Part shown: positions 9,332 to 47,185 of the stretch, in pieces | Layout: the number at the start of each line of letters is the position of its first letter | Position numbering within the stretch: the stretch's first letter is position 1 | Origin: Vicugna vicugna | Taxonomy: Eukaryota | Length of the DNA: 47,185 nt | Assembly: GCA_013265495.1 (NCBI GenBank) | Contig: MU057403.1 | Location: forward strand, 491,481 to 538,665 | Reading direction: 5' to 3' | Notes under the pieces: model-generated | Told to the model about the DNA's origin: nothing | Databases searched by the model: none | What the model saw: the letters and a program-made list of their open reading frames with translations, nothing else | Program-made: the position numbers and the translations under genes

Positions 9332-9502
9332 CCACAGGGAACTATATTCAATATCTTGTGGTAACCTATAATGGTAAAGAACATGACAATGAATACATGT
9401 ATGTATATGTATGAATGAAACATTATGCTGTCTACCAGAAATTGACACAGCATTTTAAACTGACTATACTTCAGTTAAAAAAAATGCAGATTAAAAAAAA
9501 AA
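9332..9502 (+). mobile_element. Short 5'-truncated lineage-specific L1 3' end with poly(A) and TSD
   Basis: cacagggaactatattcaatatcttg...actgactatacttcagttaaaaa. Flanks AAAAATCAGACAGCTTT (9315-9331) and AAAAAGCAGAGAGCTTT (9498-9514). Confidence 0.85.
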
Positions 9503-11450
9503 GCAGAGAGCTTTTCTTAAGTAAATATGCTGCCTGCTAGCAGAGAGCATACATTTTATTTATCAGTAAATATTTGTTTCGGGTTTACAATGCCAAAGCA
9601 CAATAGACCCCTTAAGCCTGGGACGGTATGAGACATGTGCTAAGTAGGACCTCAATAAATGTATATTAAATAAATGGTTGCATGAAAATAAACAAGAAAA
9701 ATGCAAGGTTTTCTTACTGACTTTGAAGAAATTGTAGCCAGTTTGGTGAGACAAGAAATAAGAATATGAATATTTATGATTTAATGTCAAAATGAGTGAG
9801 GTTTACAAATACCATAATATATCAATGCACAATCAGTGCGGGATGTAATTTCTTGAAACGTTTTTGTGGAAAGAAGCAGGACTTGAGCTGTAGCTCTGAA
9901 GATAAGTGGAAAGGGAGGGAGAGACCAGGAGCGATGGGACCAGGAATAAACATGAATAATTTTGAAGACCAGCTTCACTGGAGCTGTGAACTTGTACTAG
10001 AGGGAACTTGGGGGGAAGGGGGTGCTTGTAGGTAGACAGGGGCCGGCCCGTTGAGACACAGGGCTCTGATTATCAAAGTCCACAGGCTTTCTGTAGATAC
10101 CAGGAACCCAACAGAGATATTCCCAGCAAGGGAATTACATGATGAATTTATTATTTTAGGGAATGTATTCAGTCAGCAAAATGTTATGCAAATTAGAATC
10201 TTAGGAGGGAGTGAGCAGACGGAGGGAAATCAGAGCAGGCAGGGTTGGTTGTAGAAAGATGACTGCAGAATGATGACCTCAAACATCAGTGGTTGCTATA
10301 GAAATATCAAGAAGGGATACTTGACTGTCAGCTCTTTGAAGACCTGGTATGTTTTATTTATCTTTGTGTCTCCTGTGACCATCACATAGATGGTACCCAG
10401 TAAATAGCCGTGGTATACATGACTGAAAGAGTGGGGAGGGTCTGGTTGCTTACTGATTCCTGGTTTTCTAATTGAAGGAGAAGAAAAATAGAGTCAAGGA
10501 CACACAAGAAAATTTGGGTTTGGTTGATTGGGATATTAGTGGTGCTAGGGACAAGTGGAAAGATTTCAAAGGGAAGTTGCTTTTGAGAAGATAAGCTGAT
10601 TTGGGGCAGGCTGTGTTTGAGATGACATTGGGACAACCAGATGCAGAAGGTGTTTTCTTGGTCTGGGATCAACATTTAAGTGTTAAGAGAAAATGGGCTC
10701 TCCTGGAAAAGGAAGTTTAAAAGCTAGATTATATAGAAATATGGCTCTCTAAAAGCCTATCTTCTCAGCAGTCTTTTTTTCCCCTTGTTTAACAATGTTT
10801 GTCCTCTTTTCATAGATTCCTTAGTTTTTAATCATTCAGTACTGTAATTGTGAGTCTGAGAACTTGTGCCTGGGGTTTGAGCCCCTGACTTCCCTCAGCC
10901 TTTACCTGGGAACATCTGAGGTGTATATCGGTGGTTCCATGAAGCCCTTGAAATTGTGTGTGACATTTTGTACATGTTTCTGGGAAAAAGATACCTAACT
11001 TTTATCAGATTCTCAAGGAGTTCTAGGAGCCCCAGAATGGACTAAAATATTTCTAAGAACTCCTCCAGACTTGAGGCTCCGTTTGCTTTGGCATTGGTTT
11101 GTTTCACTTTCCCTGTAAGCATTCTTATCATAAGCTTAAGTGTGGCCATAGCTCAGATTTATCCCTCCTAAAATCCAGACACTCTAAATTTCAGTTATGA
11201 ACTGACTTTCCTATGAGATCCTAGTTGAACCTAACAACGTACTTAAGAATTGAAGATGTCCTACCCACTGTTTTTTCCTTGGTATGTACTTCGATTTATG
11301 CATAGCTACAAAGTTAAGAATGTTGAGCTGTCTGCCTTCTGCTTTTAAAATCATTGAGTAGCTATCCTATTATACTTATTTCCCACAAGTGCAATTTGAT
11401 GCACGTATAATTATTTGTGTAAAATCTAACCTGGATTTCAGTTTAAGAAG

Positions 11451-11599
11451 TTCAAAATCTTGTAATAACCTTTAATGGAAAAAAATATGAAAACAAATAT
11501 ATGTATGTATATGCATGACTGGGACATCGTGCTATGCACCTGAGATTGACACATTGTAATTGTATGTCAATAAAAAAAATTAAAAAATTAAAAAATAAA
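11451..11599 (+). mobile_element. Short L1 3' end with A-rich tail
   Basis: tcttgtaataacctttaatgg...gtatatgcatgactgggaca...attgacacattgtaattg...aataaaaaa. Same family as 16653-16910. Confidence 0.8.
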
Positions 11600-16652: not shown

Positions 16653-16910
16653 TTTTTTTTTTTTAATGGAATTACAGTCAATTACAATGTGTCAATTTCT
16701 GGTGTACAGCACAGTGTCCCAGTCATGCATATACATACATATATTTGTTTTCATTTTTTTTCATTAAAGGTTATTACGAGATATTGAACATAGTTCCCTG
16801 TGCTATGCAAAAGAATTTTTAAAATATATTTTCATATATAGTGGCTAAATCTCAAGCTCCCAAACTTATCCCTTCCCATCCCCTTTTCCTGGTAACCATA
16901 AGACTGTTTG
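16653..16910 (-). mobile_element. Lineage-specific L1 3' end, antisense
   Basis: T12, then tacagtcaattacaatgtgtcaatttctggtgtacagcac...atagttccctgtgctat...ggtaaccataag. Confidence 0.85.
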
Positions 16911-20948: not shown

Positions 20949-21618
20949 TTTTTTTTTTTTTAATTGAAGTATAGTCAATTTACAATATAGTATTCATTTC
21001 TGGTGTGCAGCGTAGTGATTCATTTATACATATACACACACACACATATACCACATACATACCTATATATGTGTGTGTATATATGTATTCCTTTTCATAT
21101 TCTTTTTCATTATAGGCTATTACAAGGTACCGAATATAGTTTTCCCTGTGCTATACAGTAGGACCTTGTTGTTTATCTATTTTATATACAGTAGTAGTTG
21201 CAAATCCCAAACTCCCTTTTTATCCCTCCCCACCCGCATCCCCCGTGTAACCGTAAGTTTGTTTTCTGTCTGTGAGTCTGTCTGTCTTATAAATAAATTA
21301 ATTTGCATTGTATTTTTTTTATTCCAGGTATATGTGATACCATATGGTATTTGTCTTTGGTTTACTTTACTTATGGTAAAGTATGGTAATCTCTAGGTCC
21401 ATCCATGTTGCTACAAATTGCATTATTTCATTCTTTTTTATGGCTGGATAGTATTCCATTGCATATATATGCCACGTCTTCTTTATCCTATCACCTGTTG
21501 ATCCCATTCCTGGGCATATATCCAGAGGAAACTCTAATTGGAAAAGACACGTGCGCCCTAGTGTTCATAGCCACACTACTTAAAATAGACAAGACCTGGA
21601 AGCAACCTAATGCCCATC
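20949..21618 (-). mobile_element. 5'-inverted L1 insertion (antisense 3' end 20949-21502, sense piece 21501-21618)
   Basis: Poly(T) plus antisense L1 3'UTR switches to sense ORF2-end sequence (atcccattcctgggcatatatccagag...tggaagcaacctaa). Imperfect TSD TAGTTACTCTTTT / TAGTTGTCTTTT. Confidence 0.85.
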
Positions 21619-23370: not shown

Positions 23371-25625
23371 TCTTTGGTTTACCCTGAACACTGTTCCATG
23401 TCACTAAACTTGGTTCCCAACTCTACCTTCTTGGTGTTTGCTGTTCATATCTGTTCTCGTTAGCGTCACACTTGATCATTTTCTTAGAAGTAGTGTTTGG
23501 TTCTCAGCCCTAAGCAGTCTGTTGCCTGGGCAGGAATTTTGACCTTGACCTTGACTCCGTGCACCCCAGTTCCAGACCCTTAGCCCTTTAACCTGTGGCC
23601 AGCTGGGCCTCCTTCTGAGGGAGGGATTTGTCTTCATGATGTTCTTCTCAGTCTCCCCCTAACCCTCAACTTCCCCGGTAGAATTCATCCATTTCACAAG
23701 TATTCATCAAAAGCATCTTGATATTTAATTCTTATTTTGCATATAACCCTGGAAATTCAGCACAGTTTAGAAATATTTAATCACAATTTACAGGATGTCT
23801 CAAGAGGTAGCTATTTGCCCCTGAAGGTCATGGAGTTTATCTACAAGTCTTGTGACAGTGGCTGTGTGGGCTGCAATTTTAGTTTGCTTTCCCCTTAACC
23901 TTGTTACCTCTCTTCTGCAGTTACCCATAATATAAAAACTAGAATGTAAAAAAGTATTTTCTGAATTCATTGAATAGCTTTCTCTTCTTTTTCAGGAATT
24001 TAGAAGCTCAAGACTACAACATTCTCATTGCTCTCTAGAGGGGGAATGAGATTGTCCTCTGCTTACACAGCCTTCTGTGGATAGACTTTTCCTTGCAATT
24101 CAGCCACACTTTACACAGAAAAGATCCCCTGATTTTGTTGACCTTTCCCTCTTGAACAGAGTTAACCAACTGTTAATCACCTTTGTTGCTTTGCCCTGAA
24201 GCCTTCTTCCATTTTCTACATCTCACCTAAATTGTGGTGCCCCACGTTCAAGACGACAGTAAGGACAGGGTCTCTTTTATTCCTTGAGATAGTCCCAGGG
24301 TCTAGCATGGTTCCTGAAGCACTGACTGCTCTTGGTGAATAGTTGTGAGATGCGTGAATCCCTCTGGGGGATGTTGAGGGCTAGGGGGAGCCTGAGAAGG
24401 GCATCGTGTGACAGAGCCATTGTCCTGTCTCCTGCAGCCTTAGTTCATCCCTTACCCTTGTTCTGTCACCTACTCAGTAGATCTTAAATCTTCCCCACCC
24501 AACCCTTTTCACCCTTAGATCACTTGCTTACTGTGGGCCCTTTCAGTCTTTACCTGGATAAGCTCTAACAACAGTTGGCCTTCCTCCTTCTGGTCTTCCA
24601 CCACCAGCCATCCTCCATTACCCCAGTGACTGTTCCCGAACACCAGCTTATTCATTCACTGAACAGATATTTATCCCGTGACTCCTGTGTGCTGGGCATG
24701 TACTAACACCTTCACGAAATCTTCCCTTTGCCCCCGGTTAGCTGAAGTGCCCTTCCTCTGTGTACTTACCATGCTTCTTCTCACGTCAATCTGTGTCATA
24801 TTGAAAGTATGTTGAAGTACCCATTACATTTTGTGTCTGTCTCTTCTGATGTCGTTAAGCTCCCTGGAGAGCAGAGTCCATCTATGCTTTATATATTTTT
24901 GTATTTAATAACTTATAAGTTGTAATCCTCATGACCTTGAACCCTAGAGAATGGATCCCAGGAAAGGCAGCTTTTTATTAATACTTGGAAGGTGCCTGTA
25001 GCCTCTGCCTCACCCTGGCTGCCCCATATCTCATTAGGGAGTCTTACAGAGTTTGATAAACAGAAGAGAGGCCTGTGGGCTCTGGGCTGGGACACTTAGG
25101 TGGTTAGTATTCAGAGTGTCCTACAGTGTCTGGTACACAGTAAGCCTTAAGCAGTCATTAACATTTCATGGAAATCCAGGAAGCATCCCATTTAGAACTA
25201 AAGAAGAATTTTGACCTGGGACTTGAAATGAATCAAAAAAAAAAAAAAATCAAAGATAAAAACCAAGGAAACACCCAGCGGTCTACAGTGTGAAAGAAAA
25301 AGGAACTTCTGCAATTTGAACAAAAATCGCTTTTTCAAAACTTTATCATTAGACCAACTGTGACACAAAGATGATTTTGCACATTTTCAGATTCTGCCTT
25401 TATAGATCAAGGCTGAAAGTGTTAAGCCAGATTCTCCTGGGACCAACTGACTTCTTGAGCGTTAAGCCCTTTTGGAAGTATGTGGACTCTTTCCAGTTCT
25501 GGAACTCAACACAGTTAGAGGGTCCCCATGCTTTTCCTGGGGGTGGAAGAGAGCTTTCCTTTTGGAGCTGGACTGCGTGGAGGAACTTGCTGAAGGTACG
25601 ACACAGCAAGAGTAAGGTCATCATC

Positions 25626-28070
<2,445 letters not shown>

Positions 28071-28508
28071 GTAAGATCATCATCAAGCCACAGGTTTCTT
28101 TTCCATTAACTCCTGGGGCATGTTGACTGGACCACGTGATAACCTTGATCCCATTGGGGACCATGTACATCCTCCATGTAAAACAAGAGCCTTGAATGTC
28201 TCAGTTATAGAGAGAGTTTAAAGCATTTATATGTAAAATCTTTGGGTTTTGTCAGGACCAGTTTTCAAAGAGGTGTGACCAGCATTATTTGGGGAACCAC
28301 TGTGTTGTCTTAGTGTCATTATGGAAAGAACCCTAAAGGAAGAAGCTCAGGTGAGAACGTTACCCCCATCACAGTGTACTCTGGTATAAATTGCAGAGAT
28401 GTGATTGTCAAAAGACATATCTTGGAGTCGCTAGCTACCTGGGTGCCTTGGTCCTATCATGTAAACTCTCTCAACTCCAGTTTTATCATCTCTAAAATGG
28501 GAATGATT

Positions 28509-28824
28509 GGATGGACCTAGAGATGATCATACTAAGTGAAGTAAGTCAAAGAGAGAGAGAGAGACAAATATATGATATCACTTATATGTGAAATCTAAAA
28601 AAAATGAAATAAATGAACTTCTTTACAAAACAGAAACAAACTCACAGACATAGAAAACAAATTTATAGTTACCAAAGGGAGAAGTGGGGAGGGATAAATT
28701 AGGAGTTTAGGATTAGCAGGTACAAACTACTATATATAAAATAGATAAATGACAGGGTCCTACTGTAGAGCACAGGGAACTATATTCAGATCTTGTAGTA
28801 ACTATACTTCAGTTAAAAAATAAT
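28509..28824 (+). mobile_element. Artiodactyl-type L1 3' end inserted into a MIR
   Basis: ggatggacctagagat...cacagggaactatattca...ctatacttcagttaaaa. Degenerate TSD AAAATGGGAATGATT (28494-28508) / AAAACTGGAATAATT (28825-28839) within a MIR core. Confidence 0.85.
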
Positions 28825-35938: not shown

Positions 35939-36051
35939 TCTCAGCCTTTTGTGGAGTACCCCTACAATCAGTGCGCAGTGGTCGGAAATGGAGGAATTCT
36001 GAATCAGTCTCTCTGCGGAGCTGAAATAGATAAATCTGACTTCGTGTTTAG
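35939..36051 (+). CDS. ST8SIA6: ST8SIA6 coding exon (likely exon 6), 113 bp, first half of sialylmotif L
   Basis: Acceptor ttcactttctcctgatAG, donor GTaaga (36052). Translates SQPFVEYPYNQCAVVGNGGILNQSLCGAEIDKSDFVFR (CAVVGNGGIL = sialylmotif L). Confidence 0.97.
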
Positions 36052-36458: not shown

Positions 36459-38663
36459 AAACAGAGCATTTCAAGTAAGTTTTGTTCTCAGATAATACTT
36501 GGAGCATGTTGACCTAGGCATTTTACAGCCACACAATATCATCGTTTATTTAGGTTTCTGGCTTGAAATATTTTTTAAAAATTGTGCAGCTTCTAAATTC
36601 TGGTCTTGTTACATGTTTATATCTCAGTTCAAGCAAGCTTGCAGAAACAGTAACAAAAAATGGTTTCCGTGTGTGTCTGTACTAACAAAGCAAGGGATAG
36701 AGCATCTCCACTTTCAGAATATATGGACAGGTGACTCATCCCTGTGAGGGTGGATTTCAGTTGAAATGCACCTTTTTTATAAAGTAAGTCAAAATTTGTT
36801 TCTTCCTATTTGGGAAGCACTGACTGCATACATCAGAAGAAATCCTTTGATCCTTATCGATTTAATGCTGCCCTTTTTAGCACATGAAAAAGAATTATAA
36901 TTTTGAATCAGTAGCTCCCCCGACTTTAATCTCATTTAGAATTTTGTGCTGAAGGGAATGGCAGAACCACAGACCTGGCAGTCCAATCATTATTGAATAT
37001 GTTCCTTGTGATTAATGTGAAAGTGGCCAGTACCTGCGTGATTTAGCCATTCTGTTAAAGTACTCAGTATGAAAAAGCCATAATGATGATAAATAATTCT
37101 TCTTGTAATAGACATTTTATAGACTGAAAAATTCCCAAAACATCTGTGGTGAGTGTTATGTCTAAACATCCATTTTACTTTATAGCAAATACAGGAAATA
37201 CAAGGTTTTTGTTAGATTTAACAATCAGGGGAGAGGAAAAAAAAAAAAAAGCCCTGAACAGCTACTTAATTTATACCTCTAAAATAAGCACATGTATTTC
37301 CAGATTCTACATTTGCTGATGCCAGGAATTTTTCTGAATACAGAGTTCCTTTTGATGTTGACCTTCCAACCTGAAAGGCCAAATGAAGGCTAGATGTGTT
37401 TGGTGGCATTAAAATCTATTTACTTTTTTAAGGCCAGATTTACTTTGGCCATGAATGTATTTCGTAGTTTATAAGCCCATCTGGAGACTACTTTCTTTAA
37501 AATTTTCCATTTCAAAAGGTCGAGAGCTGTCAGCTGCGTGTGTAAGAAATGGGAATAGGCGATGCATGGCTTTGCTGTACTGTGTGTGTACGGCACCTAA
37601 CAGTTCCCCTAGGAGCCGCATCTGATACTATTGGGAAAATCACCTTTGAGTCTTCAAAAGAACGTGAGACTGTTCTAGAAGGTGGATTTGTTATAGGAAG
37701 CCCACTGATAAAGACATTTCTGTGGCCTATTATCGAAGATTTTCCCCAAGGTGCCACATTTAACCATGTTCTGATGTATTTTTTAAATCAGTGAGAGAAG
37801 TCCATGTTTTATATGGACTGTATTATCTGTATGTTTTATATCGCATAGAATAGAATCTTTCTGCTTCAGTCACATTACAGAACACCTCAGGTTTAAATAG
37901 CCTTCCTCACTGATGCTCCCTTTATATGGGCAGCTTTAAGGAAATGGTCTACTTGAAATTCTGTAAATGATACTTTGGGATCATAACCAACTCCCCGCCT
38001 CCTTTTTTTTTTTTTTTTTTTTTTTACAGGAATGTATTTAGCCCCAAATTATAATTCTCAATTTGTTTTCCAATTTAAAAACAAATTAGCACTCAAAAGG
38101 AGATGAGAACATCAGTAGGAAAACATCATTATAAGAACCATTAGGGTTTTATTTATTAACAGCATGATTTGGTGGGAAAGTCCATATGGGAATCAGGAAA
38201 TTTTGTTTTTTGTTTTTTGTGTTTTTTTTTGTATAGCCTTTGCTTCTGGCAGACTCTATAACCCTTAGTCACAATGCCTCCATTTTTAAATATCTGTAAA
38301 TTGGTGATCATACTATTGTGGGACTATAATTAATATAAATAATAATTTTAATAGAAGGATCATGAATTCTTCAAAAGCTACACAAGGTGTAATTGTCATT
38401 TCTTGCTTTGTTACTTATAAAGATCTTAATCAAAATTGAAAGCCTTTTTTCAAATTCATACATTTCATGCAATGTTGAAATGCCAACCAAAAGTTCAGTA
38501 CTTATTAAATGGTTTTAAATGAAAATCAGATGAATTCTGAGATCTCTTAAGAGCAATGATTTTTCTCCAATGAGAATGATCTCATGTATATGTGTGAATG
38601 TGTGTGTATGTACTTTTTTTTTAGAAGTTATATTTTGAAAATAGTTTTTCTTTCAAATTCCAG

Positions 38664-38756
38664 GTGTAACATCCCCCCAACCACAGGGAATGTTAGCAAA
38701 GATGTTGGCAGTAAAACCAACCTGGTAACTTTAAATCCTAGTATCATACGACTAAG
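38664..38756 (+). CDS. ST8SIA6: ST8SIA6 coding exon (likely exon 7), 93 bp, second half of sialylmotif L
   Basis: Acceptor tttcaaattccAG, donor GTaagt (38757). Translates CNIPPTTGNVSKDVGSKTNLVTLNPSIIRLR. Confidence 0.96.
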
Positions 38757-39904
38757 GTAAGTACCTCCAAATTACATTTCTGTTCAAGAACGTTTTTTCA
38801 TTAACTCTTAGTCTGAGCATTAATCTTGGTGCTGAGAATGACTCCCAGTACAGATGGAATGGCTTTGGGGGAAATATGTAAGAATATATTATTGGTAATT
38901 TAGGTGTTGGCTCATAAGAAGTATGACTTCCAATGTCATAGTTGCTAATCAAATGAGAACTTATTTTACCTCCTCATCTTTTTTTAACAGCAAAGTTCCT
39001 TTTTTCAGTGTTCTTTCAGAATTTTACTGCTATACTTTTATCTTGATAGCACTTTCTTGAAGAAAACTTAGTCTATTTAGAAGCTTTGGAGAGTAAGCCT
39101 TAGGAGAACCTGGCAAAAATCAAGTTTTCGGTTTGGGTAGTTTATTTCTGAAGGATAATTTCCATATTTTCTTTTCCGCACTGTAACTACTACAAAATGT
39201 CAGCTGTTTAATAAAAATCCCATTCATAGTTTTATTCTACAGTTTTCATCAAAAGTGACTAATAATTGTTATTAATAGTATGCACCCCTCAAATAGTTCT
39301 AGTATGTCTTAAGAGAATATAAAATATTGTTCCCATCTCCCCAGTGTTTATTTTCTAAACACACATAAACAGGATATTTACTGAGGTATTATTTAAATCA
39401 GACATCACAATCTGTGGAGGAAATTTTAAATGTGTGTGTGTACGCATGTAGGCATTTTAGGTTTTCTAAATGAAACTGTTATTTTATAATAACATTTGTA
39501 TAAGTTTACAGCTCAATGAATTCTTAAAAATGTATAGATATTTAAATATTGTCTTATGTTTGAGAAAACAGTTCAGCATTATGAATTTGGAAGGTGTTTC
39601 AGCATCAAAAAGTAACCCTAGGAAAAAATGACGTGAGTTGGAAGATAAAATAATGTAAAACAATGCATGCTGAGTGAAAGCATTGCCTCATAAGAAAGTA
39701 GGAAGCATAGATGTGCCGAGAGAGAGAAAGACCAGCCCCGATATGCACATGATGCTTGCTTAACATGTCTTCTCTGAGTCTCCAGTTTATCTCAGTGATA
39801 TAAATGGTTCTGCTTTTTGGCCAGTGGTGAATTCAGCCTCATGTCACCAAACCTGCTCATTTGAGTATTACTGTTAAAATTATGATTTTTTAAAAATTTG
39901 GCAG

Positions 39905-40373
39905 ATATGGGAACTTAAAGGAAAAGAAGGCAATGTTTCTGGAGGACATGGCCACCTATGGAGATGCATTCGTCCTTCTACCGGCATTCTCCTTCAGGGC
40001 CAACACCGGGGCCTCTTTTAAAGTGTACAGCACACTGAAGGAGTCTAAAGCAAGACAAAAAGTTTTATTTTTTCATCCCAAGTACCTGAAAAACCTAGCC
40101 CTTTTCTGGAGGACTAAAGGTGTGACCGAGTATCGCCTGTCCTCCGGCTTGATGATCACAAGTGTGGCGGTTGAACTGTGTGAGAGCGTGAAGCTGTATG
40201 GCTTTTGGCCCTTCTCTAAAACTGCAGAGAACACATCTGTCAGCCACCACTACTACGACAACCATTTACCTAAACGCGGTTTCCATGAGATGCCCAAAGA
40301 GTATAGCCAAATTCTCCAGCTCCACGTGAAAGGAATCCTCAAATTGCAGTTTAGCAAATGTGAAGTAGCCTAA
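39905..40373 (+). CDS. ST8SIA6: ST8SIA6 last coding exon (alpha-2,8-sialyltransferase 8F, GT29 family), to stop codon
   Basis: Acceptor ggcAG (39903-39904). YGNLKEKKA followed by ORF 39933-40373, with sialylmotif S (LSSGLMITSVAVELCESVKLYGFWPF), motif III (HHYYD), motif VS (HEMPKEY) and C-terminus LQFSKCEVA*. Confidence 0.98.
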
Positions 40374-41759: not shown

Positions 41760-44700
41760 ACATACCCATTATCCCAAAATATTTTCTTATGCTTCTTTCA
41801 CTCAACATGGTAATACTAGGATTCACTCATACTGTTTTTGTGTCAATAGTTTATTCCTCTACTTACTGATATGGATGTACCACAATTTTGACCCCTTTAC
41901 CCACTGATGTACATTTCAATTTTCTCCAGTATTTGGCTATTACAAATACAACTACCATGGACATTCATACAAAGTATTTGTGTGGACATATATTTTCATT
42001 TCTTTGGGGCCAGTATCTAGGGTTGGAATGGCTGGGTCACCTGGTCAATGTATGTCTCATACTGTTTAAAACTACCAAACTGTTTTCCAAAGTTGTAACA
42101 TTTCATGTTTTCTATCAGTAGTCTATACAAGTTGTTAACGCACATCTTTGATAAAATTTTGTATGGGCAGTGTTTTTTAATTTTAGGCATTCTTTTGGAT
42201 GTGTGCTTGTTTCTCATGGTTTTAATTTTGATTTCCCTTATGATTATCTTTTCATGTGTTTATTTGCTTCCTATCTATCTTCTTTGGTAAAGTGTCCATT
42301 CAAATATTTTGACCATTTTTGATTGGATTGCTTTATTATGGAGCTATAAGAGAATTTTGTATATTCTAGATACAAATCTTTTGTCAAAAGTACAACATTT
42401 TTCTAACAATTTTTAAATTTCACTAAAATCTAATTTATTGATCTTTTCAATTTTGTAGTTTGTACTTTTGTTTCAAATTTAAGAAATCTTTGCCAAATCC
42501 AAGGTCACTAAGATTTTCTCCAATGTTTTCTTCTAGGTTTATACTTTGACTCTTACATTTAGTCTTACGAGACACTTTTTAGTTAATTTTGTGTGTCTAT
42601 TTACAGTGTGAAGTAAGAGTAATTGGATTTCATGACTTCTGTTTTTATAGTTGCTTAAGATAATTAATATGAGACCTATTTTTGTTTTTAACATGGGAGT
42701 TTAGTGCTATAGATTTCCCTCCAAATACTTTAGCTGCTTTCCACAAATTTTGATATGTCATGTTATGTTCTTCATGCAGTTTAAAATACCTTCTGACTTT
42801 TTTCCCCCTTTAAAAAAACCTTTATTGAGATAAATTCATATACCACACAGTTTACCCATTTAAAGTGTATAATTCAATGGCTTTGAGTATATTCACAGAG
42901 TTGTATACACATTACTATAACCAATATTTTAAAATGTTCATCACTCCCCTCCCCCCACACACAAAAAAAAACCCTACACCTATTAGCAGTTACTCCCAAT
43001 TTCCCCTCAGTCCCCCAGTCCTGGGTAATTTTTCCTTTGTACCAAAGTTTATTTAGAAGCATGAAATTTAGTTTCAGATATTTCTGAATTAACCAGATAT
43101 ATTATTGTAGATTACTTTAAATTTCAGTGTGGTCAATGGACGTGCTTTGTATGATTTTAATCCACCTGAATTTATTGAGACTTTTATTTTTATGGCCCAG
43201 AATATGGTCTTTCTTGGTAAGCGTTCTGTGTGCGCTTGAGAAGTATGTGCATTCTGATGTTGCTGAGTGGACTGTTCTAATGTCACTTAGATCAAATTGA
43301 TTAATATTATTGTTTCAGGCGTCTGTATATTTCCCGATTTTCTGTGTATTTGTCCTGTCAGTTATTGGGAGAAGAGTGTTAAATCCTTGACTATAATTAT
43401 GGATTTGATTATGTCTTCTTGCAGTTTTATCAACTTTTGCTTTGTGCATTTTGAAGCTCTGTTAGTAGGTGCTTGAATGTTTAGGATTGTTATGTTCTCT
43501 TGACGAATGACCTCATTATCATTCTGAAATTATCCTCTTTATCTCTAGTAGTATTTTCTCTGACATCTACTTTCATGTTATTATAGCCACTCCAACTTTT
43601 AAAATATAATGTTAGCATATCTCTTTTAACATGTCATTTTACTTTGAACTTATTTCTTTATATTTAAAGGGATTTTCTTAAAGATAGCAAATAGTTGGGT
43701 CTTGCTTTTTTATTTAATCTAAACATTTGCCTTTTACTTCATGTGTTTATATCATTTAGATTTGCTTTCACACATTTCACTTCTACATATATGGTAAACC
43801 CAGCAATACTTCATTACATTTTTTGCTTTCAACTGTCAATTACCTTTATAAATTTTTTTCTTAAAAATTTTTATACTTAACCCAGATATTTCCATTTTCT
43901 GTACTTTTTATATTTTTAGATCTGCATTTTCACTGGGTATAATTTCTCTGAAGGATTTCCCTTAATATTTCTTGTAGTGCTAGATGGCTCGATGATAAAT
44001 ACTTTGTTCTGTATATTTGAAAAAATGTTCATTTCACTTTCATGAAAAACATTTCTTTTTTTGTTGAATTGATAGTATATGTTCTCTCGGTACTTTAAAG
44101 ATGTTTTTCCACTCTCTTCTGATTTGCATTGTTTCCAATGAGAAGTTTATTGCCAGTTTTACCTTTGTTCTCACGTATATAATGTATTTATTTTTCCCTC
44201 TGTTTCCTTTTGATTTTTTCTTTCTGTCACTAGTTTTAGGCACTTTTATTATTATGTGTGTTCATATAATTTTCTTCAATTTTTTTGTACATTTTTTTGT
44301 TTGTTTTTGGTTTTTGAGCATTTTGAATCTGTGGACATAAGGCTTTCATCAGATTTGGAAAGTTTGGGCCATTATTTTCAAAGGTTTTTCTTTCCTATCT
44401 CCTCTCCAGTTTTCAGAATTTTCAGTTAACATAAACTAAGCCGCTTGAATTTGCTCTGCAGGTCATTGATTCTCTATTAATCCTCTTCTTCTTCTTTTTG
44501 TTTTTGTGGTCTGTTTTTCATTTTGGGTAGTTTCTATTTCTACATCTTCAATTTTACAAATACTTTCTTTTACAGTGTCTGATCTGGTGTTAATCCCGTC
44601 CAGTATGTTTTTCATTTTAAACATTGTAGAAGCTTTATTTGTGTCTTTTTATGCCTTCCATGTCTATATTTAGTAGGCTTGTTTATTTCTCTATCTTCTT

Positions 44701-45128
44701 CAGAATGTGGGATATACTTATAACCCTTACAGTGTCTCTTTCTACTATTTCTATCACCTGTGTAATTCTTTGATCTGTTTGTACTGATATCTTTTTCTTC
44801 TCAATCTGAGTTGTATTTTTCTGCTTCTTTGAATGTCTGGTGATTTTTTATTGAATGCCAAATACCATAAATTTTACTTTCGTATGTGTTAAATATTCTG
44901 GTGTCCTATAACTAGCTTAAAATTTGTTCTGGGAAGAAATTAAGTTACCTGTAAAGGGTTTGTTCCTTTAGAGGCTTACTTACAACCTTTGTTAGTTGGA
45001 ATCATAGTAGCATTTATTCCAGGGCACATTTTTTTCTCCTACTGAGGCAATACCCTTATGAGGACCCTATTCAGTGTCCCATGAATTACACGATTTTCCT
45101 TTCTGTGTGGTGGGAACATGAATTATTC
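41760..45128 (-). mobile_element. Nested old L1M fragments, antisense
   Basis: L1 3'UTR antisense at about 41760-42600 and 42810-43030. ORF1 remnant NFSLETMQIRREWKNIFKV at 44040-44243 (-). L1MC/MD-like 5' region up to ggtgggaacatgaattattcc. Confidence 0.85.
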
Positions 45129-45129
45129 C

Positions 45130-46620
45130 TTTTTTTTTTAAATTAATCCCTTTGGTAACTGATACATTTAAGTTTTATTTTGTCCTTTAAGAATGGGCAA
45201 AGAGGAATGTAATAACATTCACCATTTCTGTGAAAAAGACCGTTCCGATACAGAGGCAGAGGGGACTTTGTTAGCATATTCTCCAGAATGCTCTCTAGTG
45301 AGTGGATATTTGCAGATGACTTCGGAGCAGAACTTCTCCTGCACGTGTCTCTGCCATGGGCCTGTGATGTGGTGTTGCCCACAGGGCCTCTCCGTGTCTA
45401 CAGCATGTCTCCTGGTTGTCTCCGCCTTTCTGCAAAGAGCAGTATTTTCGCCTCTGCATCTTGGTGAAGTTGTTTCCACCAAGCACATAGGAACAATGCG
45501 TATTCCATCCTGGATTCCTAAAAGCCTGCTTTGTGCCAAGTTTGCAGTGGCCTGCATCACTGTGGCAGCTGCCTCCTGTGCCTTACGGTTCATGGTTGGG
45601 ATTGGTGGCCCCATTCCTGGCCCTCCCTGCTGAGACATGCCAGGAGAACTGGGGGTCATGCTGCTCATATTTCCAGGAAACGGTCTGTTCTGCATCGCAG
45701 CTGATGGCATTCGTCCCAGGGGCATAGCACCACATGGCTGGCTTGGCCCTTGTCCATGCATCTGGTTGTTGGCATTGATGCCCATGCCGGGCCCTGGGCT
45801 GCTGTAGCTTGCACTGGGCACCCCACTATACGTTGGGGGTCTGGAGTAGTTACCTAAACAAAAATCAAACACAAATTAAAGCCTTTTACTTAATATTTGA
45901 ACTCGTGAAAACATTCACTGGAAATACTTTTTATCCAACAATGTGATCGACACAGAATATTAGTCATTATCCTTATTAACCCTTCCCCTATTGGCGCTGA
46001 TGAGGTTGGCAGTCTCAAAAAACGCTCTCTCTGCACATTCCAACGGCAAGAGCCACACAGGACCACTGCAACACGGAGGGAAATCCAGATCGATCAATGA
46101 AACCATCTATGAGCGGACAAGGGAGGCTAGTCTGGAGTGCTGCTTCAGCACATCCAACACCTCATATTCTTACCAAATTTAACCAAAACAATTATTTCAG
46201 CCCCTAGTCCCTAGGTGAGCACCAATTTGAGACTGCACCACTGCCTCACTACCACACTGGACAGTCAGGACAAAGAGTTCAGAAGACAAGGGGTAAGAAA
46301 CCATGCACACACGGTCAAGACCATGCTTCAAAATCCCCCAGGGGGTGTCATGTGGAAACTCGACATTAGTCCAGCACAGCTGGCTCTTCTTCGGGGTCTG
46401 GAAGACGTGTTTTCCTTGAGCACCAGATAAAGTGGCTGGTTTGTACGTGGTGCCGTGTCTTAGAAAATGCAGCCTCAACACTGCATGGCACTCAGCACTG
46501 CGAGGTGGTGGCACCACTGGGAGCAGGGAAGGCTGGAGGCTGAGATGAGCGTCTGCCATCCCACCTCCCACCCCTGCTGACACGGGGGCTCAGGCTCACG
46601 AAGTAGAATGGGCCGGACTA
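45130..46620 (-). pseudogene. ARID1B: ARID1B fragment: one 328-bp exon (45526-45853) with retained upstream intron-like DNA and a poly(A)-terminated 3' extension; right boundary approximate
   Basis: Minus strand [18 protein letters not shown]...[21 protein letters not shown] matches an internal ARID1B exon. Intact acceptor tttgtttAG (45855-45854). AATAAA on the minus strand at 45174-45179 and T10 at 45130-45139. No other ARID1B exon seen. Right edge estimated only from a GC-to-AT composition shift. Confidence 0.85.
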
Positions 46621-46719
46621 TTTCAATAGTTTTGTTTTCTCTCTCCTTCCACATCTTTTATTTTGATTGAGTTTACATAAATTACATTCAAGTAAATTAA
46701 AGGTATATATAATGCTACT

Positions 46720-46940
46720 TTGATAATAATAACAACTGCTGAACCATATTATGTATGAGACACTGGGTCAAGTGCTTTGCATCAATGACTTCATTCATTT
46801 CCCAAGTAACATGTGAAATATATATACGACCATGACTCCATTTACAAATGAAGAAAATCGACAGCTAGTAGGTTAGGATTTAAGCTCAAGCAGAATGATT
46901 ATGGAACCCATGTAACTGACCAATAATACATGCTGCCTCC
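46720..46940 (-). mobile_element. MIR SINE, degraded
   Basis: aagtgctttgcat...ccatttacaaatgaagaaa...ggatttaagctcaagcag...tgctgcctcc. Confidence 0.6.
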
Positions 46941-47185
46941 CAGTAAGTAACGGTTGAAATGAAATAGACGTATAAAGGGAAAAGTGTTTGCAGAACAAGC
47001 AGCAGTGTGTCTCCATCCATCCGTACTACTTTCTAGAAGAATCTCATCCATATAACTGTCCTAGGGACAAGATATAAAGTTAAATACAATGCAATTCTGG
47101 TACTCAGGATACTCACAGCCAAAGTGTGTGTGTGTGCGTGTGTGTATGAGGTGAAGCAGCAGGGGTAAGATGAGAAAAAAAAAAA

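Follow-up and report, generated by a model that had tools for sequence, protein, structure and literature searches.

What kind of RNA, if any, could have left an ARID1B exon joined to foreign sequence and followed by a run of A's beside an unrelated gene? The question is raised by a 47,185-nucleotide stretch of Vicugna vicugna DNA, referred to below as the window. On its minus strand, a pyrimidine-rich AG acceptor, a 328-bp ARID1B exon, a 386-bp foreign segment and an A10 run follow one another in this order. A sequence-only reading had taken this arrangement for the fossil of a truncated ARID1B isoform, and the positions it gave for the exon, the junction, the stop codon, the AATAAA and the A10 run are all correct on the minus strand. 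Our analysis supports the RNA origin and the splice-type junction of that proposal but not its protein-coding part, because the copy retains intron with stop codons and neither the frame nor the poly(A) signal is conserved. The explanation that we regard as fairly likely is that the locus is a semi-processed pseudogene, open at its 5' side, of an ARID1B RNA that would have ended in a cryptic last exon. The features are as follows, in minus-strand order.

46097..47185, minus strand: probable further stretch of retained intron, up to the window end (by inference only)
45854..46096, minus strand: retained ARID1B intron with AG acceptor, 5' of the exon (by homology)
45526..45853, minus strand: ARID1B coding exon, 328 bp, decaying (protein homologues, consensus comparison)
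45140..45525, minus strand: putative cryptic last exon, 386 bp, non-coding genomic DNA in other lineages, with a probable YAG acceptor (degenerate back-translation alignments, acceptor enumeration)
45219..45524, minus strand: 101 open codons in the frame of the exon, plus stop (45221-45219); frame not conserved (open reading frame)
45174..45179, minus strand: AATAAA, separated from the A-run by 34 nt and missing from this site in homologues P0034 and P0077 (sequence and homologue alignment)
45130..45139, minus strand: A10, probable remnant of a non-templated poly(A) tail (sequence and homologue P0077)
42000..45129, minus strand: host flank, limits approximate: an old and degenerate L1-like stretch oriented the same way (appearance of the sequence, AT skew)

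The main gene of the window encodes a family 29 sialyltransferase, which we take to be ST8SIA6; it lies on the plus strand, and its last coding exon ends at 40373. The last exons of this gene, at 35978, 38662-38757 and 39907-40373 (plus strand), look intact. The ARID1B piece is situated about 4.8 kb past the stop codon of this unrelated gene and on the other strand, and is therefore a copy away from the parent gene. The repeat that adjoins the A10 run is presumably an old L1, L1MC/MD-like by its look, with which its A-rich minus strand agrees (between 42 and 45 kb, the AT skew of the plus strand is -0.20 to -0.39). A weak match of the upstream part of P0035 to this flank (E 0.53) was judged to be due to chance. 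The window also contains a retrocopy of a SLAIN-family gene, presumably SLAIN2, at about 25605-28085 on the plus strand. It is broken into three frames, has an A-tail, a CpG-rich 5' part (observed/expected 0.76) and an almost perfect target-site duplication (25612 and 28071), and is probably intronic, lying upstream of the sialyltransferase exons (35978 onward) on the same strand. Short related repeats with A-tails occur at 9333-9484, 11450-11579, 16657-16802, 20950-21040, 21118-21405 and 28508-28800; they resemble the 3' ends of lineage-specific L1 elements, which we assume to be of the camelid type. No tRNA genes were found in the window.

The exon is that of ARID1B. It is matched by 30 proteins among 78 candidates, the best of them 88-94% identical over the exon, and all named matches are called ARID1B or ARID-containing protein 1. 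When the copy is compared with a consensus of 29 distinct homologues (55 of the 83 proteins being full-length and ungapped), seven of its 110 codons deviate, six of them within the 72 invariant columns, and five of the seven are single CpG transitions. The exon copy has been decaying since its insertion, mostly through such transitions, and decay of this type points to a long-lived separate copy and not to a mis-join of the live gene. The exon presumably lies upstream of the ARID domain; a PDB search to place it relative to this domain gave only weak, unrelated matches.

On the minus strand, the exon ends and the segment begins as CAAAGCAG/GCTTTTAG. What normally follows the exon can be read from the protein collection, since many of its members are spurious frames reading from the ARID1B exon into the true intron. 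The last residues of the exon are passed by 66 of the 76 homologous proteins, a count that includes cluster members and whose rows are thus not independent species. Sixty-three of these continue with Tyr, which corresponds to AG/GT-AY and a read-through into the intron; two continue with Gln-Gly, the spliced next exon; and one, a bat gene model, with Asn-Val. None continues with Leu-Leu, as the window does, and no read-through protein among the 66 homologues aligns to the segment. The bat ARID1B model (P0007) has first residues that weakly resemble window positions 46038-45972 and a tail unlike that of all other homologues, and is probably a prediction artefact. The break therefore sits on the constitutive donor of the exon, and the original observation that the junction is neither a normal GT donor nor the normal next exon holds. 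It had also been considered that the segment might be contiguous with the exon at the parental locus, the donor having mutated from GT to GC. This possibility was rejected: with 63 of the 66 reading AG/GT-AY and none resembling the segment, the latter is not the adjoining intron of the parent behind a mutated donor. To judge from these cross-species read-throughs, exon and segment are non-contiguous in the parent.

The segment has homologues of its own. Its 101 codons, compared with 1.84 billion representatives, gave three matches, two of which are real; the remaining one, P0033, a repeat protein of bacterial origin, was set aside as a chance match. A profile search (three matches among 474 candidates) added a third cluster. 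The three clusters, P0032, P0034 and P0077, are unnamed frames and were aligned as degenerate back-translations of genomic DNA. P0034 covers 45528-45173, with 183 of 215 fixed bases matching; P0032 covers 45527-45232 (115 of 157) and P0077 covers 45526-45145 (157 of 209). These alignments score 120-263 bits versus 15-21 for six shuffles, and the identity at fixed bases, 73-85% across the three clusters, is that of neutral DNA. A high-copy repeat was rejected on the weak evidence that just three homologue clusters exist. Scans of metagenomes for the DNA that flanks the segment homologues produced 292 pattern matches, none confirmed, and no exact match; neither the 84 matches in viral contigs nor the 76 in prokaryote genomes were confirmed. 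Of 24 sequencing runs listed, 21 contain part of 45100-46000, the best share being 0.34 and none reaching half.

The homology of all three clusters starts at 45526-45528, that is, at the junction, and the sequence upstream of it is not ARID1B. Codon enumeration for the three bases before the junction permits CAG, CCG, CGG or CTG in P0034, TAG, TCG, TGG or TTG in P0077, and NAG or NTC in P0032. AG is the only -2/-1 dinucleotide that all three clusters permit, and position -3 is a pyrimidine in the two that fix it. By parsimony from these protein translations, a YAG acceptor exactly at the junction is probable; it would be a weak one, since the region upstream of it is purine-rich. The location of the junction on a constitutive donor, together with segment homology that starts right there, supports a splice-type join. 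The segment, apparently non-coding genomic DNA in three other lineages, looks spliced to the exon, and the removal of the intervening intron would have been precise, as judged by a donor known from 63 of 66 homologues and an acceptor deduced from three clusters, both in the sequences of other species.

At its other end, the segment carries an AATAAA located 34 nt from the A-run, which is slightly longer than the usual distance of 10-30 nt between hexamer and tail. A poly(A) run behind a signal, as processed pseudogenes possess, is present as AATAAA followed by A10. At the site of the AATAAA, P0034 has lysine codons, in which no T is possible, and P0077 has a 4-nt gap; the absence of the hexamer from both suggests that the signal is lineage-specific or arose late. 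The homology of P0077 extends to 45145; the codons that come after it there, Gly-Gly-Leu-Leu-Ile-His-Ile-Trp-Glu, leave room for three consecutive A's at most. The A10 is therefore probably non-templated, a conclusion drawn from the single homologue cluster that reaches past the tail. A genomic A-run, which the sequence-only reading had named as a finding that would speak against it, was rejected because this sole cluster passes the tail position without one.

The upstream side of the exon, omitted in the earlier account, reveals more about the template. The pre-exon parts of three of six tested read-through proteins align 5' of the exon well above shuffles: P0006 at 45967-45855 (80 bits; shuffles 13-20), P0008 at 45926-45855 (42 bits; shuffles 16-19) and P0020 at 46096-45935 (42 bits; shuffles 14-16). 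The remaining three stay within the shuffle scores or exceed them by only about 4 bits. As read from these alignments, at least 243 bp of the upstream ARID1B intron (45854-46096) are retained. The frame of the exon meets 16 stops in 444 codons of the upstream region, the last of them 8 codons before the exon. The template was therefore not a mature mRNA, and the molecule as copied was unable to encode N-terminal ARID1B plus a new tail; translation of it could at most have begun at a Met inside the exon (188 codons). The rest of the region, 46097-47185, is probably retained intron as well, on weak compositional grounds: the CpG observed/expected ratio of 45854-47185 is 0.40, a value reached by three of 34 bins elsewhere, two of which are in the SLAIN retrocopy. 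Rfam gave nothing in the retained intron, and what we take to be a MIR-like remnant lies at about 46740-46890 on the minus strand inside the presumed retained intron. No repeat of at least 7 nt of the tail-side flank, as a target-site duplication would leave, was found upstream of 45200 within the window, and the 5' end of the insertion is probably beyond it. The window itself ends in an A11 run (47175-47185), possibly an assembly break.

By bringing these observations together, the origin of the copy can be described in some detail. In the germ line or the early embryo, an ARID1B transcript would have used the normal donor of the exon, whose splicing partner was a YAG acceptor, weak and cryptic, within non-coding DNA. 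Cleavage and polyadenylation 34 nt after the lineage-specific AATAAA would then have turned this DNA into a cryptic last exon. Both of these steps are well supported. The cryptic exon most likely resides in the next ARID1B intron after this exon, or at a later point of this transcription unit. The RNA would still have contained the upstream intron, being an unfinished pre-mRNA or having its start within that intron. The L1 proteins, in keeping with their established biology, may then have reverse-transcribed the RNA from its tail into an A-rich site in the old L1. The place of the segment in ARID1B, its acceptor and the absent A-run are all read from protein translations of other species, which counts against this description, as does the 101-codon open frame, which is unusual for noise. 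No function of the copy is indicated by the evidence, and the most likely view of the parent RNA is that it was processing noise at a low level.

The open frame is one reason to consider instead a real and regulated isoform, of which the RNA would be a precursor with retained intron; the mature mRNA of this isoform would encode N-terminal ARID1B and a 101-residue tail and would lack the ARID and C-terminal domains. The sequence-only reading had noted that the frame stays open for about 100 codons past the junction, and it does so for 101, up to the stop at 45221-45219. It is in register with the exon, and an equally long open frame in the given register arises in 13 of 3000 dinucleotide shuffles and at 116 of 17839 overlapping GC-matched start points in window 1-25300. 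P0032 shares this frame at its beginning, and its end falls almost where the frame closes; a last exon is known to escape nonsense-mediated decay, and translation and function are reported for some cryptic last exons in bioRxiv 10.64898/2026.01.30.702498. The frame is not kept between lineages, however: P0032 leaves it midway, P0034 and P0077 have one extra nucleotide some 10 nt past the junction as well as further frame-shifting gaps, and non-triplet gaps relative to the segment occur in all three clusters. The poly(A) signal, missing from the two clusters that cover its site, is no better conserved, and a conserved protein-coding last exon was rejected on these two grounds. The openness of the homologous frames is itself biased, since it was by such frames that these homologues were detected. 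No protein of 369-2000 residues with the tail was found among 11 candidates in a weak search, none of 30 shorter protein matches spans both exon and tail, and Pfam recognizes no family in the 210-residue frame. The absence of the ARID domain from such a product, moreover, depends on the presumed placement of the exon before that domain. We regard an isoform precursor as unlikely, and the copy is no demonstration that cells ever produced a shortened ARID1B protein. The most specific form of the idea is quite doubtful: that a regulated cryptic last exon exists, or once existed, in camelid ARID1B and gives a stable, germ-line expressed N-terminal form that consists of the disordered region only, carries a lineage-specific 101-residue tail and lacks the ARID or BAF-assembly domain, the retrocopy being its intron-retaining precursor. 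If it were true, a natural short form might serve to adjust the dosage of ARID1B or act as a competitor for the N-terminal region's partners.

The junction could also unite two loci, the segment lying outside ARID1B. Such a chimera might arise by trans-splicing, by a template switch of the reverse transcriptase on AG-G, or by splicing once an earlier duplication of DNA had brought the exon alongside the segment. The exon end and the acceptor do have AG-G in common (CAG-G with P0034), a real microhomology of 3-4 nt, on which a switch or a deletion would give identical letters, and the scans for flanking DNA yielded no confirmed locus tying the segment homologues to ARID1B. Breakpoints that coincide precisely with a constitutive donor and a YAG are, however, what cis-splicing is expected to give, whereas a template switch would have no reason to respect both, and we hold a two-locus origin to be unlikely. 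An event at the DNA level, namely a duplication with a GT-to-GC donor mutation or a deletion beside a genomic A-run, or else an assembly join, would account for the presence of the upstream intron, as in DNA duplications, and would fit the lack of a visible target-site duplication in the window and the A11 at the window end. It is very improbable, because the segment is unlike the downstream intron of the parent in all 66 read-throughs, both segment ends fall on RNA-processing signals, and the CpG-type decay of the exon is that of a long-lived copy. The semi-processed pseudogene of an ARID1B RNA with a cryptic last exon is the reading that we retain.

As it stands, a retrocopy recording a rare, unfinished ARID1B transcript is of little significance. 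It does, however, define a junction that is precise and open to testing, namely that of a cryptic last exon in a gene sensitive to dosage. Haploinsufficiency of ARID1B leads to Coffin-Siris syndrome, as stated in the part of PMC13542418 drawn on here, and its protein contains a DNA-binding ARID as well as a folded C-terminal part, according to PMC6181354. If the exon proved to be regulated and translated, it would divert ARID1B output to a form without either. Neither an ARID1B retrocopy nor such an ARID1B last exon was reported in the literature searched, which was covered mostly at the level of listings.

The copy belongs to a described class, the semi-processed pseudogenes, and is real but of a known type. 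Examples of this class named in PMC4151081 are rodent preproinsulin I and the TMF1 copy in CYBB, in which intron 7 was retained and the 3' end was set by a poly(A) signal of intron 8. Like these, the ARID1B copy derives from an incompletely spliced RNA, keeps an intron, is truncated at the 3' side and would have used an alternative poly(A) site. Unlike the TMF1 copy, which reads on unspliced into intron 8, it appears to have its last junction spliced to a separate segment; it is also an aged copy in decay, and neither its 5' end nor a target-site duplication is in view within the window. Cryptic last exons number in the thousands, show intron-like conservation and are only sometimes functional, as described in the main text of bioRxiv 10.64898/2026.01.30.702498, in which ARID1B does not occur. 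The putative ARID1B exon resembles those in being terminal and unannotated, in its intron-like conservation, in having signals restricted to a lineage and in the predicted truncation of the protein, and differs from the catalogued ones in being known here as a DNA fossil alone. The use of retrocopies to trace variant transcripts of their parents has been described (Shemesh et al. 2006, as cited in PMC5470649). In the passages of PMC7692494 concerned with this subject, retrocopies reveal unannotated parental exons, and a new exon was confirmed by GT-AG boundaries in the parent and by junction reads, whereas the ARID1B junction was read from the copy and from the sequences of other species. Like those retrocopies, the ARID1B copy exposes an exon junction that is missing from annotation.
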